Shown here piece after piece: positions 5,874-60,406 of a stretch of DNA of 64,000 nucleotides. The stretch is from contig CP060228.1 of assembly GCA_023898565.1 (NCBI GenBank), positions 240,594-304,593 on the forward strand. Reading direction: 5' to 3'. A program made the translations under genes and the position numbers. Under the pieces are notes generated by a model. It saw nothing but the letters and a program-made list of their open reading frames with translations, searched no databases and was not told the DNA's origin. This stretch comes from Candidatus Nomurabacteria bacterium. Its GTDB lineage: Bacteria; Patescibacteriota; Minisyncoccia; Phycocordibacterales; UBA918. Every line of letters starts with the position of its first letter. Position 1 is the stretch's first letter.

Positions 5874-5984
5874 ATGTTGGCGCCTACCTACTCTTCCGCT
5901 TGCGCAGTACCATTGGTGGTAGAAGACTTTACTTCCGTGTTCGGAATGAGAACGGGTGTACCCCTTCCCCCAAAGCACCAACAT
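5874..5984 (-). rRNA. rrf: 5S rRNA
   Basis: Reverse complement reads TGTTGGTGC...CCGAACACGGAAGTAAAG...GCGCCAACA, with helix I pairing and conserved 5S loop motifs. Confidence 0.85.
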
Positions 5985-6046
5985 AAAACTTTCAAATTAA
6001 TCGTCGCTACGCTCGTGTGAAATGGTCCCGACAAAAGAACAAGGAA

Positions 6047-6118
6047 GAGGGGGAAGCAGGATTTGAACCTGCGACCTCTGGTGGTGAACCAGTGCTCTGC
6101 CAAACTGAGCTATTCCGC
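6047..6118 (-). tRNA. tRNA with non-canonical anticodon arm; anticodon probably CAC (Val?), identity uncertain
   Basis: Reverse complement GGCGGAATAGCTCAGTTTGGCAGAGC ACTGG TTCACCA CCAGA GGTC GCAGGTTCAAATCCTGC TTCCCCC T shows canonical D and T arms (GGTTCAAATCC). The anticodon stem has only 4 bp plus an A.A pair, position 37 is C, and there is a C3.C70 acceptor mismatch. No CCA is encoded. Confidence 0.55.
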
Positions 6119-6131
6119 CCGTTGTCGGGAA

Positions 6132-6208
6132 ATGGTCGGAGTGACTGGATTTGAACCAGTGACCTCTAGCTTTTTACACTAGCGCTCTACCAGGCTGAGC
6201 TACCCTCC
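6132..6208 (-). tRNA. tRNA with encoded CCA; anticodon reads AAA (Phe?), identity uncertain
   Basis: Reverse complement CGGAGGG TA GCTC AGCCTGGTA GAGC G CTAGT GTAAAAA GCTAG AGGTC ACTGG TTCAAAT CCAGT CACTCCG A CCA. It has a C1:G72 pair and a G6.A67 mismatch; U33-AAA-A37 sits in a 7-nt loop. Confidence 0.55.
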
Positions 6209-6287
6209 GTTTGACCATTTCACACGATCGTATTTGCATATTCAAGAAGTTTCTTCGCTACTCAAAATCTATACATGATGTACAGCG

Positions 6288-9532
<3,245 letters not shown>

Positions 9533-55453: not shown

Positions 55454-55837
55454 CTACATCAAAATATTCTCTCCCGTAGCTCCCGGAGCCACATCGTATA
55501 CCATGTCTGGAGTTAGTCGGATTACCGCGCGCAACGTTCGATCTGGGAAACGTTCTTTCATAACTACCGCCTGTGCCTTAAACGCCTCCCCATCTGTCTC
55601 ATATACAGCCCGCCCTTTGATTTGCAAACCAACGAATCCTTGCCAACACGTAAATGCCACCATTGAATTTTGTTGCAAATTCACTGCCGTCTTCCCCATA
55701 AAAAAGTCAAAAAACCAAATTTCTTCACCATGCACTTCCACCACCGAAAGCGGTACCACATTCACCCCTTCTGGACCATTAGTTGCTAATGCAAACGCGG
55801 TCGATTCCGCTATCTTCTTTTCGATGTCTGCTGTCAT
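55454..55837 (-). CDS. pyridoxamine-5'-phosphate-oxidase-like FMN-binding split-barrel protein
   Basis: Size and motif pattern (...VNVVPLSVVEV...) consistent with the PNPOx-like fold; low certainty. Confidence 0.4.
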   Translation of the reverse strand: MTADIEKKIAESTAFALATNGPEGVNVVPLSVVEVHGEEIWFFDFFMGKTAVNLQQNSMVAFTCWQGFVGLQIKGRAVYETDGEAFKAQAVVMKERFPDRTLRAVIRLTPDMVYDVAPGATGENILM

Positions 55838-55958: not shown

Positions 55959-56504
55959 TTAACCCCCGAAAAAACGTTGCAACCAACCTTTTTTCTGCAC
56001 TGAAGTGGCCGGAGTTGTTGACTCATGAGGATTCATAACCTCTTTTCCCATGCTGGCTAAACGCGCTTCTCTCTCCGCATTAAGCGATGCTGTACGCATT
56101 TCGTCTGCCCGTGCCGTTTGACCAACAACCGCGGACACGTCTTCCGACGCCACAGCCTGCTCGCTCGTTAGTGCCTCTCCCTCGTCTAGAGTAGCGACAT
56201 TCAAGACTTCAGTGTCCACTGCTTCCGAATCTTCTCCTGTGTCTAGGCCCATGTGTAACTCTGGAAAAGCTCCTTCTGGAGCATCAGTGCGCTCTGGCAC
56301 AGCACCTGCTCGTTCAGCCTCATTTTTTACCGCTTGAAATCCTTCATATCCAGGCGTCAATTCCGAACCATCAACATCTCCCTGTCGGTCAAGCGTCTCG
56401 TAAGGATTGTTGTTGTAAGGGTCATAGCCCTGACCCTCTGCACCGCTCCGATACTCTTGTTCTGCGTTTCTGCCTTTTCCCTGACCAAATGATTCTAGTG
56501 ACAT
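55959..56504 (-). CDS. acidic low-complexity protein, hypothetical
   Basis: ORF with strongly biased D/E/G/A composition. Confidence 0.35.
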   Translation of the reverse strand: MSLESFGQGKGRNAEQEYRSGAEGQGYDPYNNNPYETLDRQGDVDGSELTPGYEGFQAVKNEAERAGAVPERTDAPEGAFPELHMGLDTGEDSEAVDTEVLNVATLDEGEALTSEQAVASEDVSAVVGQTARADEMRTASLNAEREARLASMGKEVMNPHESTTPATSVQKKGWLQRFFGG

Positions 56505-56608
56505 GATACTGATGTGTATAGTCTTATAATTTTAAATAATAGTATCCTGAATTCCTGTATAAATAAAGCCAAAACCTCCCCCGACGGGAGGTTTTGGCTT
56601 TATTCTAA

Positions 56609-58291
56609 TTACTTCTGATCCTGTTCCGCCAACTTCTTGCGCACCATCTGCTGGGCCGCATTCATACTGTGCTGGTAGTACAAACTCTTTACACCTTGCT
56701 TCCACGCCTTGATGTAGAGAGCGTTAATATCCTTCACCGGCGTATCTGGCGCCACCATAATATTGAGTGACTGCCCCTGATCGATGAACGCCTGTCGCTC
56801 ACCAGCCTGGTCGATAATCGCCTCTTGGTCGATTTCTGAGAACGTGCGGAAGACTGCCTTTTCGTCGTCAGTGAGACACTTAAGGTGCTGCACTGAGCCG
56901 TCGTTGTCGCGAATACTATCCCAGGTCACCTTAGTATCTTCCCCCTTCTCTGCCAGCAATTCCTGAAGCGTTGGGTTCTTGATGGTCACCTTCATCTTCG
57001 CTACGTCTTTGGTATAGCAGTTGCTCCAAATCGGCTCGATACCTTGCGATACCTGCCCAAGAATAAACGCAGACGAAGTAGTTGGTGCAATCGCAATCGT
57101 AGTGGTGTTGCGACGACCATAGCCCTTTAGCACTTCTGGTTCACCAAGCTCGGTAGCGAGCTGCTTGGTCGCAGCATCGGCTTTCTCTTGCATGAGCTTA
57201 AAGACTTCTGTGTTGAGCGCTGCCGCTTCCTTACTTTCAAATGGCAACTGCTTTGATTGGAGGAGAGAGTGGTATCCAAGGACACCTAAGCCGAGAGCTC
57301 TATTGGCCTTTGAGAAGTTGTACGCTCGCTCCATAAAGCGGAATGCGAGCTGCTTTTCATGCTCTTCATGATCACGGAGGGCTTCAAGCTTCACGTTGAA
57401 GTCTTCAATTACCGTATCCAGAAACGCAATCATGGTTTCGATGAGGTCAGTATCCTTCCAGTCATCATAGTGCAGGAGGTTCACTGATGATAAACAACAC
57501 ACAAATGACCAGTCATCGCGTGACGGGAGCATAATTTCGCTACACATATTGCTCGCGTAGATTTTTAGCTCCTTGTCTTTATACACGTCTACGGTGTTCT
57601 TATTGGCAGTGTCAGAGAACATGATGTACGGATACCCCATTTCACCACGACGCTGGATGATGCGCGCCCAAACCTTGCGCTTCTTCTCATCACCACCAAT
57701 CATCTCTTCCATCCACTCATCCCCTACCGTTACACCATGGGTGAGCTTTTGGATTGGATTTCCTTCGGTGCCGATATCAAGGAACTCCATGATATCAGCG
57801 TGTTCCGCTGGCAAATACGGGGAGAAGTGTCCGCGACGAACCGACCCCTGACTGACCACATCCACCAGTGTCTCAAAGAGCTGCATGAAATGCACTGAGC
57901 CTGATGAATGGCCGTTGTCTGAGGCAATCTCCGCCCCGCGAGCGCGCAAGTCACCAAAGTACCCAGAACAACCACCACCATACTTACTCATCATTCCTAC
58001 CTCACCATGCGTATGGAGAATGCTGCCCATGTTGTCCGAAACGTACGATCCAAAGCAACTAATCGGCAAACCTTTCGGAATACCGAAGTTTGACCATACC
58101 GGCGAAGAGAGTGAAATCCACCCCTTCGACATATACTCAATAAACTTCTCGGCAAAGCCTTCGCGACCGAGATACTGCTCGGCAGCTTTGGCAATAACTT
58201 CAATTCGATCTTCAGCGGTTTGGCCTGGAGCCAAGTATCCGCGGGCTAAAAACGCGCGACTATTTTCGTTCAACCAGTACCAGGGTTCCAT
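56609..58291 (-). CDS. nrdA: class I ribonucleotide reductase alpha subunit, cone-less short form
   Basis: SNMCSEIMLP (active-site Cys/Glu), GLPISCFG, and the C-terminal KSLYYQ tyrosine pair. There is no N-terminal ATP-cone and no C-terminal Cys pair. Confidence 0.75.
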   Translation of the reverse strand: MEPWYWLNENSRAFLARGYLAPGQTAEDRIEVIAKAAEQYLGREGFAEKFIEYMSKGWISLSSPVWSNFGIPKGLPISCFGSYVSDNMGSILHTHGEVGMMSKYGGGCSGYFGDLRARGAEIASDNGHSSGSVHFMQLFETLVDVVSQGSVRRGHFSPYLPAEHADIMEFLDIGTEGNPIQKLTHGVTVGDEWMEEMIGGDEKKRKVWARIIQRRGEMGYPYIMFSDTANKNTVDVYKDKELKIYASNMCSEIMLPSRDDWSFVCCLSSVNLLHYDDWKDTDLIETMIAFLDTVIEDFNVKLEALRDHEEHEKQLAFRFMERAYNFSKANRALGLGVLGYHSLLQSKQLPFESKEAAALNTEVFKLMQEKADAATKQLATELGEPEVLKGYGRRNTTTIAIAPTTSSAFILGQVSQGIEPIWSNCYTKDVAKMKVTIKNPTLQELLAEKGEDTKVTWDSIRDNDGSVQHLKCLTDDEKAVFRTFSEIDQEAIIDQAGERQAFIDQGQSLNIMVAPDTPVKDINALYIKAWKQGVKSLYYQHSMNAAQQMVRKKLAEQDQK

Positions 58292-58328
58292 AGAATTCAG
58301 GATAATTCAGAATTAATTCGTAATACGT

Positions 58329-59642
58329 CTAGAAGAGATCATCACTTGTAACACTCGATGAGCGCTTGTTGTAGTTGATTGATCGCTTGTGGAAGAAATC
58401 GACATGCTTCGTAGCAATCACTTCGTTGTCGAACCAATCAGTTTCTGCCAATAACGCCTCACTCACTTCGAAGATGCGTGGCAAGCCGATTGAAGCGAGG
58501 GAGTTGTTGAAGCGATGCTTAATAAATTCCTTTACATTGGCTGCTGGCAAGAAGTCCAGCTCCCCTGCTTCAAAAATCCAGTCCACGATTTTTGCTTCGG
58601 ATTCATAGGCCTCCTCACACGCCTTCATGATGAGATTGTTACAGTCTTCATCAAACCACTCTGGATGCTCGTCTTTGATTACATTAATGACATCGATACC
58701 GAACATGCCGTGAATTTGTTCTTCTTTTGAAGTCGCTTCCACTGCGTTACTGATGCCTTTGAACAAGTTTTTGTGCTTGTTGAAGCTCATCATAATCAGG
58801 AACTGTGAGAAGAGTGACACGTGCTCCACAAAGAGCGAGAAGAGCATTACCGCATGAGCGTACTCACGATTTTCGGTGGTACGAGAGAGGTCGATCACCT
58901 TCTCCAGGTAGTCCATGCGCTGCTGAATCACCGGAATTTCCTTTATCTTCTTAAACTCGTCATTAAGACCAAGAATCTCCAAGAGATGCGCGTACGCATC
59001 AGCGTGGCGCACTTCCGACTCGGCAAACGTGGCGCCCACTGCCCCAATCTCTGGCTTGGGCATCTTTTTGTAGATGTCGCCCCAGAAGGTCTTCACCGCC
59101 ACTTCGATCTGTGCGATTGCCAGCATGGCGTGCTTAATCGCAGTCCGTTCAGCCTCACTCACATTAATATGAAAATCCTGCACATCAGCGGTGTAGTTGA
59201 ATTCAGTGTGAATCCAGTATGAGTGACGGATTGCGTTGGTGTACTCATAAAGTTCTGGATATTCGTACGGCTTGAGATTCTGACGCTTCGCAAAAATATC
59301 ACGCTCACGTAGCTTTTTACGCTCGTTACGATAAATGATATATGCTTTGGCGGTATTGTAGTAATCCTTCTCCATCAGCGCCTGCTCAACCAAGTCCTGA
59401 ATCTCTTCCACGGCAGGATTACCATCAACACACTTCTTCGCCATCGGGTGATCGGGCGCTGCAGTACCGGCCTGCACGCACATCGCGACCACTTTTTGGT
59501 GTGCTAGTTCCGCGACATCTTCAGCAGCAGCACGGTCTCCCTCTCCCGTTTCAGCCAATGCTTTTGCAATGGCACTAGTGATCTTTGAGAGATCAAACGG
59601 CTGGACCGAACCATCTCGCTTTCGGATATTTTCAATTTCCAT
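58329..59642 (-). CDS. nrdB: class I ribonucleotide reductase beta subunit with N-terminal ATP-cone fusion
   Basis: The N-terminus MEIENIRKRDGSVQPFDLSKITSAIAKAL is an ATP-cone. It is followed by the ferritin-like R2 core (SEVRHADAY, FSLFVEHVSLFSQF, EEQIHG, C-terminal ...DDLF). Confidence 0.8.
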   Translation of the reverse strand: MEIENIRKRDGSVQPFDLSKITSAIAKALAETGEGDRAAAEDVAELAHQKVVAMCVQAGTAAPDHPMAKKCVDGNPAVEEIQDLVEQALMEKDYYNTAKAYIIYRNERKKLRERDIFAKRQNLKPYEYPELYEYTNAIRHSYWIHTEFNYTADVQDFHINVSEAERTAIKHAMLAIAQIEVAVKTFWGDIYKKMPKPEIGAVGATFAESEVRHADAYAHLLEILGLNDEFKKIKEIPVIQQRMDYLEKVIDLSRTTENREYAHAVMLFSLFVEHVSLFSQFLIMMSFNKHKNLFKGISNAVEATSKEEQIHGMFGIDVINVIKDEHPEWFDEDCNNLIMKACEEAYESEAKIVDWIFEAGELDFLPAANVKEFIKHRFNNSLASIGLPRIFEVSEALLAETDWFDNEVIATKHVDFFHKRSINYNKRSSSVTSDDLF

Positions 59643-60406
59643 AGCAATCGTTAAGAAAGTTTATTGAGTAACTACAGCAATTGCGAGCAGACATAATCAG
59701 TGGAAGAAATCTGCAGTCTTTCGACCGCAGTGATTAGGTCTAAGCGCAATCTAAGGTCGCGACAAACACACCACCGTGCATACTCACAGTGTCTGCTCTT
59801 CTCTAGTATGTAAGTAGAGCGGAGCGTGTGTCTTACCTCCGACACACGATCTCTCGTGTGATGTATTAATAGTACCACCGTAGCGCTGGACGTGCTCGAG
59901 ACTCCACACCGATAAATAAAGGTATTCTGTCATTCTTGTGGATAACTTTTGGGATAACTCACGCTGTCTTAAAAGTACGAATCAATAATCACCTTTTGCC
60001 AATATATACAGGTTTAGTTTTTTATTCCTTGGTCACCGACTTGAGGAGGAAACTTGCGTTTTACCCACTTTTTGTACTACTCTACCGACAGACCATTCAA
60101 CCAACAAACGAGGGCCTTATGCATAGAAACATTCCCGATACCGGCTGTCCTTTTTATGGCCTGCAAAACTTACTGGTGGTGTTCTTCCCCAAGAATCACT
60201 GCTGCGGCTTGAGCCCCAAATTTGATTCTTGCGACCAGAATGATCCGCAGCTTCGCCACTGCCCTCGAGTTGACACGGCAGAATTTTGCAAAGTACTTTC
60301 TGGACAACGAGTGATTTTCCCCGAAGGCTCAAGCGAGGCTCCGTCCGGTTCGCCAGGCACGCCTATGAACGTTTGGTACACATCACCAGATCTGTGGTTC
60401 AAAAAA

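Follow-up and report, generated by a model that had tools for sequence, protein, structure and literature searches.

In class I ribonucleotide reductases (RNRs), a CxxC motif at the C-terminus of the alpha subunit NrdA normally carries electrons from thioredoxin (Trx) or glutaredoxin (Grx) into the active site. All class I RNRs have been described as having this redox-active cysteine pair (PMC6187632), redoxins are said to be unable to enter the class I active site (PMC4390871), and for that reason the pair is described as needed by all class I and class II RNRs (PMC6187632, PMC4390871). NrdB-borne ATP-cones, i.e., cones carried by the beta subunit, have been characterised in Leeuwenhoekiella blandensis (PMC5794259) and in Facklamia (Falseniella) ignava (PMC6187632). 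In L. blandensis, ATP (adenosine triphosphate) or dATP (deoxyadenosine triphosphate) binds the N-terminal cone of NrdB, and dATP-driven cone–cone contacts lock the beta subunit in inactive tetramers (beta2 to beta4). In class Id RNRs, a Mn2(IV,III) cofactor initiates the radical, and no tyrosyl radical is involved. Here, we describe a locus in a stretch of 64,000 nucleotides (nt) of contig CP060228.1 (positions 240,594 to 304,593; "the window" below) which, as judged by its sequence, is an nrdB–nrdA operon for a class Id (NrdAi/NrdBi, dimanganese-type) RNR. The host is a tiny-genome Patescibacteria bacterium of the Nomurabacteria/Kaiserbacteria group; identical proteins are on record from metagenome-assembled genomes (MAGs) labelled Candidatus Nomurabacteria and Kaiserbacteria, with one of the contigs measuring 951,832 bp. 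A preliminary description of the locus had remarked that NrdB-borne cones are known from few bacteria, which agrees with the two cases above, and had pointed to the absence of the C-terminal cysteine pair from NrdA. What appears to be new is that a Cys-less NrdA tail is fixed in a large clade of Patescibacteria and is coupled there to a cysteine finger in the NrdB cone.

The class assignment of NrdA follows from several matches. The protein scores 729.6 bits against the NCBIfam model TIGR02510 'NrdE-prime' (cut-off 602), and its best matches in the PDB are the class Id alpha subunits of Flavobacterium johnsoniae (6DQW, E-value 1e-203) and Actinobacillus ureae (6DQX, 3e-182). Pfam finds only Ribonuc_red_lgC (322 bits) and, weakly, Ribonuc_red_lgN PF00317 (31 bits), and no cone. 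NrdA is thus short (560 residues) and cone-less, as had been stated, whereas the accompanying claim that it starts directly with the catalytic barrel does not hold, since a short N-terminal all-alpha domain is kept ahead of the barrel. NrdA has PISC79F, N-x-C250-x-E, VC265C266 and LYY539 as catalytic motifs, with Cys79, Cys250, Cys265/266, Asn248, Glu252 and Tyr538/Tyr539 intact, and the active-site motifs are invariant in the clade. Because NrdA keeps its active-site cysteine pair, a disulfide must form and be reduced in each turnover.

NrdA ends in ...LYYQHSMNAAQQMVRKKLAEQDQK and has no Cys beyond its YY dyad. The gene is closed by two TAA codons in frame, the stop codon and one more, and a strong terminator hairpin follows. 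The closest homologues were collected as at least 120 clusters at 90% identity for each subunit, drawn from NCBI, JGI, ENA, Logan and Tara data, each being 82–100% identical to the query. A cysteine after the YY dyad occurs in none of the 120 closest NrdA clusters, and in the alignment the tail of the window's NrdA stops where CxxC(E/H/S)(A/G) starts in relatives. In the wider family, represented by 150 sequences from clusters at 50% identity, 129 carry a terminal Cx2-3C, located at most three residues from the C-terminus. The other 21 comprise 18 that were left unparsed by the motif filter, several of them with CxxC tails, and three that lack a Cys after YY, extend just 4–9 residues past it and look truncated; no full-length Cys-free tail was found among these 21. 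A scan of species-representative genomes returned tail-less NrdA in a Kaiserbacteria MAG (L005, 81% NrdA identity) and an unclassified MAG (L075, 72%), while all relatives at 48–70% NrdA identity keep the CxxC, including those from Saccharibacteria, Levyibacteriota, Paceibacterota, Flavobacteriia, Falseniella ignava and Pasteurellaceae. In a neighbour-joining tree from which the tail columns were left out, the tail-less NrdA sequences form one clade, the sister of which is a tailed Saccharibacteria sequence (L006). The tail-less lineage occurs in groundwater, marine and other metagenomes. The missing cysteine pair, first noted in the preliminary description, is thereby confirmed as real and as fixed across a whole Patescibacteria clade. 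A literature search for RNRs of Patescibacteria (the candidate phyla radiation, CPR) or for class I RNRs without C-terminal cysteines returned nothing relevant, and a tail-less class I NrdA appears to be unreported; the clade contradicts the general statement that all class I RNRs have a C-terminal cysteine pair.

Some Patescibacteria recode UGA, and a tail-less NrdA might in principle reflect an artefact of assembly, annotation or recoding, or a decaying gene. Such an origin is scarcely conceivable here: the stop codon is TAA, followed by the second TAA and the terminator, the same end is found in 120 independent clusters from NCBI, JGI, ENA and Logan at 82–100% identity, and all catalytic residues of NrdA are intact. 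Stop-codon read-through, recoding and truncation of nrdA were each rejected on the succession of the two TAA codons and the terminator.

Both subunits were then scanned for residues that the tail-less clade has fixed and that tailed relatives essentially lack. In NrdA, only W4, R210 and Y340 are of this kind, and NrdA itself is therefore barely remodelled. In NrdB, the positions are A53, M54, C55, A58, K70, C71 and G74, all within one finger of the cone, together with Q240. Cys55 and Cys71 are thus the sole cysteines of either subunit that are clade-invariant yet essentially absent from tailed relatives. Both are invariant in 120/120 close clusters, while residues 60–69 between them vary freely. 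Compared with the L. blandensis cone, that of the window's NrdB has 13 additional residues, which lie between helices a2 and a3. Among the cone-bearing NrdBs of named genomes, those of the tail-less loci (the window, L005 and L075) are the only ones with the Cys55/Cys71 pair; 22 tailed, cone-bearing relatives are without it. In the AlphaFold 2 (AF2) model, Cys55 lies in an elongated helix (37–60), which is followed by a turn, a short helix (66–70) and then Cys71, with predicted local distance difference test (pLDDT) values of 85–94. Based on this helix-turn-helix geometry, the two cysteines are predicted to lie opposite one another, close to the base of a finger that protrudes.

Two cysteines of NrdA, Cys108 (GGGCS) and Cys425 (SNCY), were considered as compensators for the lost pair and rejected; they are invariant in the closest 120 clusters but do not track tail loss: the tail-less L075 has GGGTS, the tailed L009 has GGGCS, and SNCY is present in many tailed relatives. 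The NrdB of the sister sequence L006, from a Saccharibacteria MAG (positions 1473–2795 of that locus), has a cone insert of similar length with GCDGYC and without an equivalent of Cys55, and the L006 NrdA keeps ...CISCEG; this combination of a cone insert with a retained tail may represent an intermediate state.

We tentatively propose that the Cys55/Cys71 finger of the cone replaces the alpha tail as the dithiol shuttle, a reading that we hold to be possible and somewhat short of probable. The shuttle dithiol would have moved from the NrdA tail to the other subunit, NrdB, where Cys55 and Cys71 would be placed at the base of a helix-loop-helix finger on the cone, which would itself be hung on a flexible linker of ~40 residues. 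From this position, the pair would act in trans on the active-site disulfide of NrdA, reducing it, and would in turn be re-reduced by a cellular redoxin. The finger would be analogous to the glutaredoxin domain that is fused to the N-terminus of NrdB in F. ignava, which provides a precedent for a reductant module at this place (PMC6187632). However, several points weigh against this proposal. Tail loss and finger gain are a single evolutionary event in one clade and carry no statistical weight, and the proximity of Cys55 and Cys71 is read from predicted secondary structure only. According to PMC4390871, the active-site pocket of class I enzymes does not admit folded redoxins, and a helical finger may be too large for it as well. 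An independent actinobacterial tail-less alpha subunit (L076–L078) is paired with a cone-less NrdB that has no comparable cysteine pair, and therefore other solutions to tail loss exist. Cys55 and Cys71 could instead staple the structure, bind a metal or sense the redox state. Finally, the search for dedicated redoxins covers the 64-kb window and the conserved neighbourhood, and such redoxins, or a second RNR, may be encoded elsewhere in the genome.

Two other routes of re-reduction have to be weighed against the cone shuttle. The NrdA disulfide may receive its electrons straight from a low-molecular-weight dithiol or from a free protein that resembles thioredoxin, without any protein-borne shuttle, and the cone cysteine pair would then have an unrelated role, e.g., in a disulfide staple, in binding a metal or as a redox sensor tuning oligomerisation. 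Escherichia coli NrdA mutants without the tail cysteines still turn over with dithiothreitol (DTT), which argues for such a route, as does the actinobacterial tail-less alpha that lacks a cone cysteine pair. A further point in its favour comes from Neisseria bacilliformis, the class III RNR of which lacks a C-terminal cysteine pair and works with thioredoxin (cited in PMC4390871). However, almost all other NrdAi proteins of the same minimal architecture keep the CxxC, implying that the tail is needed in this scaffold, and only three fixed substitutions separate tail-less NrdA from its tailed relatives, so that no opening of the active site is visible; we regard direct reduction as rather unlikely. 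It is more improbable still that the dithiol comes in trans from a dedicated shuttle protein encoded elsewhere, e.g., one that resembles NrdH or Trx and has a flexible extension with cysteines. This protein may dock on the Cys-free NrdA tail (NAAQQMVRKKL), the conservation of which in sequence and length suggests a retained binding role, and the window spans 64 kb of a genome of ~0.95 Mb, which leaves room for such a gene. On the other hand, no Trx-, Grx- or NrdH-like CxxC open reading frame (ORF) was found in the 64-kb window, no redoxin gene was found within ±3–10 kb in nine clade loci with the conserved YibE_F-MscL-nrdB-nrdA-PNPOx-peptidase M10 neighbourhood, and there is no positive evidence for a protein of this kind.

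The cone itself follows a known plan. NrdB matches the Pfam ATP-cone PF03477 with 77.2 bits (cut-off 25.8) in two stretches and Ribonuc_red_sm PF00268 with 206 bits over residues 120–393, and both domains lie in a single ORF, as was claimed in the preliminary description. A frameshift between the cone and the R2 core, which together with a missing cone match had been named there as a possible refutation, was rejected on the basis of the single ORF and of nearly all of the 120 closest NrdB clusters being 437 residues long with both domains. The best PDB sequence match of NrdB is 5OLK, the ATP-cone NrdB of L. blandensis (E-value 8.7e-173, residues 2–437), and the next matches are cone-less class Id beta subunits. 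The AF2 model (mean pLDDT 73, with values of 79–94 in the cone) also has 5OLK as its top Foldseek match. In this model, the cone consists of a beta-hairpin and helices a1 (18–32), a2 (37–60), a3 (78–91) and a4 (95–113), and residues 107–147 are a disordered linker, which forms a flexible tether of ~40 residues for the cone.

The metal-ligand motifs EVRH/HADAY, VEHV and EEQIH of NrdB are conserved, and E180-V-A-V-K184, E210xxH213, E273 and E308xxH311 are present, clade-invariant and aligned to those of L. blandensis NrdB. A Tyr four residues past His213 is likewise present and clade-invariant. The class Id pair Glu180/Lys184, near the metal site and invariant in the clade, corresponds to Glu170/Lys174 of L. 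blandensis, a class Id feature in which the Lys projects to the metal site (PMC5794259). Asp73, Met80, Lys89, Ile92/93 and Arg95, which form the dATP-induced cone–cone (a3/a4) interface in L. blandensis NrdB, have conserved equivalents in the window's NrdB (IQD, ALM, AKAYIIYR). By homology to L. blandensis NrdB, a dATP-driven beta-tetramer off switch is proposed for the enzyme of this operon, the overall activity of which is probably switched by dATP/ATP in the same way. The RNR of this operon thus belongs to class Id and has the cone-on-NrdB layout that is already published. Given the close match to the L. blandensis system (5OLK), this part is not new, the architecture being already known; the enzyme is one more member, in a phylum where the architecture seems undiscussed.

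Upstream of nrdB, ~800 nt of the window are gene-free, and the proximal 187 nt are conserved across the clade. A metagenome scan with the invariant core of this leader yielded 55 loci, and in almost every locus with enough downstream DNA the nrdB start lies ~180–230 nt downstream of the core. A hand-drawn structure of the leader was tested on 43 distinct sequences with 500 shuffles. In this structure, 81% of cells are paired, vs. 32–44% when the partners are slid, and 33 pairs show double changes; none of the 500 shuffles reached the pairing, the double-change measures or the covariation score of the leader. Compensatory changes were found in three helices (AU 23 / GC 17, GC 27 / AU 13 and UA 29 / CG 13). 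Four invariant CACAC/GUGUG segments can pair 1:2 plus 3:4, or 2:3, which is the arrangement expected of a switch, and the leader also has an invariant GGAGGUAA loop. Scanning the 800-nt upstream gap against Rfam 15 gave no match at the gathering score and only noise at E <= 1. A covariance model of the leader scores 149 bits in the window and matches tail-less-clade loci only, with 0 matches in >60 tailed NrdAi loci. These features suggest that the nrdB leader is a candidate new riboswitch or attenuator.

Other readings of the upstream region were examined as well. A pseudoknot between the GGAGG loop of the leader and a downstream CUUCC is not supported, since several sequences have CUACC without a compensating change. 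Operons regulated by NrdR have tandem 16-bp NrdR boxes at fixed spacing in their promoters. The sequence ACACGAGAGATCGTGT in the window resembles an NrdR box. In homologues, its two arms lie ~7 to >20 nt apart, the region behaves as RNA helices with covariation, and no second NrdR box was seen. The putative extended -10 promoter just upstream of the leader was not called by a sigma-70 scan. Taken as a whole, the picture of a Patescibacteria clade in which the shuttle dithiol has moved to the cone finger, so that allostery and re-reduction reside in one domain, and in which the operon stands under an undescribed riboswitch-like leader, is on balance doubtful.

Table 1. Coordinates of the features of the nrdB–nrdA locus (positions in the window).
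Feature	Coordinates	Strand	Basis
nrdB, class Id beta subunit	58329..59642	-	ORF, 437 aa: ATP-cone, flexible linker and ferritin-like R2 core
ATP-cone domain of NrdB, ~residues 1-110	59313..59642	-	Pfam match, AF2 model, conserved KRDG motif
Clade-specific cysteine finger, NrdB residues 53-74 (AMC55-variable loop-KC71xDG)	59421..59486	-	Invariant Cys pair, AF2 model
R2 (radical-generating) core of NrdB, residues 120-437, C-terminus ...SDDLF	58332..59285	-	Pfam PF00268 and ligand motifs
nrdA, class Id alpha subunit, cone-less	56609..58291	-	ORF, 560 aa
Cys-free C-terminal tail of NrdA, residues 538-560	56612..56680	-	No Cys after YY
Intrinsic terminator of the nrdBA operon	56561..56600	-	AAGCCAAAACCTCCC-GTCG-GGGAGGTTTTGGCTT then TATTT, directly 3' of two in-frame TAA codons
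Structured 5' leader RNA of nrdB, candidate cis-regulator	59677..59863	-	Covariation in three helices
TGGTAnnAT box immediately 5' of the leader, possibly an extended -10 promoter (inferred)	59869..59877	-	Conserved in upstream alignments

The two genes are adjacent ORFs on the minus strand in the order beta-then-alpha, separated by a gap of 37 nt, and the interval of the preliminary description (56609–59642) has exactly the limits of the nrdA and nrdB ORFs together. Their neighbourhood is conserved as YibE_F – MscL – nrdB – nrdA – (PNPOx-like) – peptidase M10 – SIMPL – SecE – NusG – L11. The PNPOx-like gene, downstream of nrdA in the window (55454–55837, minus strand), encodes a 127-residue protein of the PNPOx_N family (a flavin mononucleotide-binding split barrel). 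It directly follows nrdA in several clade members (L085, L087 and L090), whereas in the window a 181-residue ORF intervenes. Assembly of the class Id cofactor is reported to need superoxide, and a role for the PNPOx_N flavoprotein as a partner in this assembly is pure speculation. The intervening ORF (55959–56504, minus strand) begins right after the nrdA terminator, is acidic, of low complexity and Cys-free, and has no Pfam match; it is kept in near-identical strains (L001–L004) and absent at the same position in other clade members. Its interpretation as a split-off NrdA tail was rejected, as it is devoid of Cys and the clade does not conserve it.

Elsewhere in the window, positions 5875–9531 (minus strand) hold an rRNA region in the order 23S – tRNA – tRNA – 5S, with no 16S gene in the window. 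The 23S match covers 3243 nt vs. a model of 2925 positions, implying insertions of ~300 nt, as is typical of what has been reported for the rRNA genes of CPR bacteria. At 6133–6209 (minus strand), between 23S and 5S, ARAGORN predicts a tRNA with anticodon AAA ('tRNA-Phe'), the anticodon loop of which reads by eye as G-U-AAA-A-A. To our knowledge, bacteria very seldom have a Phe anticodon with an unmodified A34.

An abundant and strongly conserved tail-less lineage raises the question of how else a class I RNR can be re-reduced. This enzyme may be the organism's only aerobic route to deoxyribonucleoside triphosphates (dNTPs). If the cone cysteines are the shuttle, they would represent a new function for the ATP-cone and a second, independent case, after the Grx fusion of F. 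ignava, of the reductant function moving to NrdB. With the leader RNA, bacteria that have very few known regulators gain a candidate for a new element regulating the supply of dNTPs.

Among described systems, the class III RNR of N. bacilliformis resembles the tail-less enzyme in that its active-site disulfide is re-reduced without a tail shuttle, with thioredoxin being used (cited in PMC4390871); it differs in being an anaerobic glycyl radical enzyme with another active-site layout and no beta subunit. Closer in class are the actinobacterial NrdA/NrdB-like pairs from Lentzea and Nocardioides (L076–L078), in which the alpha subunit is of class I type, keeps its catalytic motifs intact and has no Cys at its C-terminus. 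Their NrdA is ~39% identical to the window's, and their NrdB has neither a cone nor an N-terminal cysteine pair; going by these sequence features, they are a second, independent tail-less class I-type lineage. An example is the pair of L077 (4815–5897 and 5761–7599). The Cys-free alpha C-terminus of this lineage reads …LYYMRSRAGVQASKQRR. In a dozen more distant representatives of the NrdA family (P0321, P0328, P0329, P0335, P0341, P0356, P0360, P0367, P0369, P0374, P0378 and P0388), a glutaredoxin-like CP(W/Y)C domain is fused to the C-terminus of NrdA.

The class Id RNRs of F. johnsoniae and A. ureae (PDB 6DQW, 6DQX, 6CWO-Q) share the minimal NrdA architecture and the dimanganese-type beta core with the window's enzyme. 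However, their beta subunits have no ATP-cone, and relatives of their alpha subunits keep the CxxC (...CSSCEG in Pasteurellaceae, ...CQSCEA in Flavobacterium). The L. blandensis enzyme (PDB 5OLK, 6SF4/5; PMC5794259, PMC6754362) has the same domain architecture, the same beta-then-alpha gene order and a cone-less NrdA. Its R2 core is ~68% identical to the window's in structure-based alignments, and both NrdBs share their metal ligands, the Glu/Lys pair near the metal site and the residues of the cone–cone interface. In contrast, the L. blandensis cone has no Cys at the finger site, where the longer cone of the window carries Cys55/Cys71, and the L. blandensis NrdA ends in ...VSCEA, as read from a published cloning primer, whereas the window's NrdA has no terminal cysteines.

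The Grx–ATP-cone–NrdB fusion of F. ignava (PMC6187632; L027) is likewise an NrdBi with an N-terminal cone, and a redox-active module on the N-terminus of NrdB serves an NrdA that is 61% identical to the window's. No glutaredoxin domain with CPxC was found by Pfam in the window's NrdB, the cone of which starts at M1, and the Grx domain is recovered in L027 as a positive control. We note two differences between these related systems. The F. ignava NrdB carries a complete glutaredoxin domain with CPWC, recovered in L027, whereas the window's NrdB carries two cysteines inside the cone. Moreover, the F. ignava NrdA keeps its tail, ...CLACEA (with the LACEA end present in a published cloning primer), whereas the NrdA of the window is tail-less.

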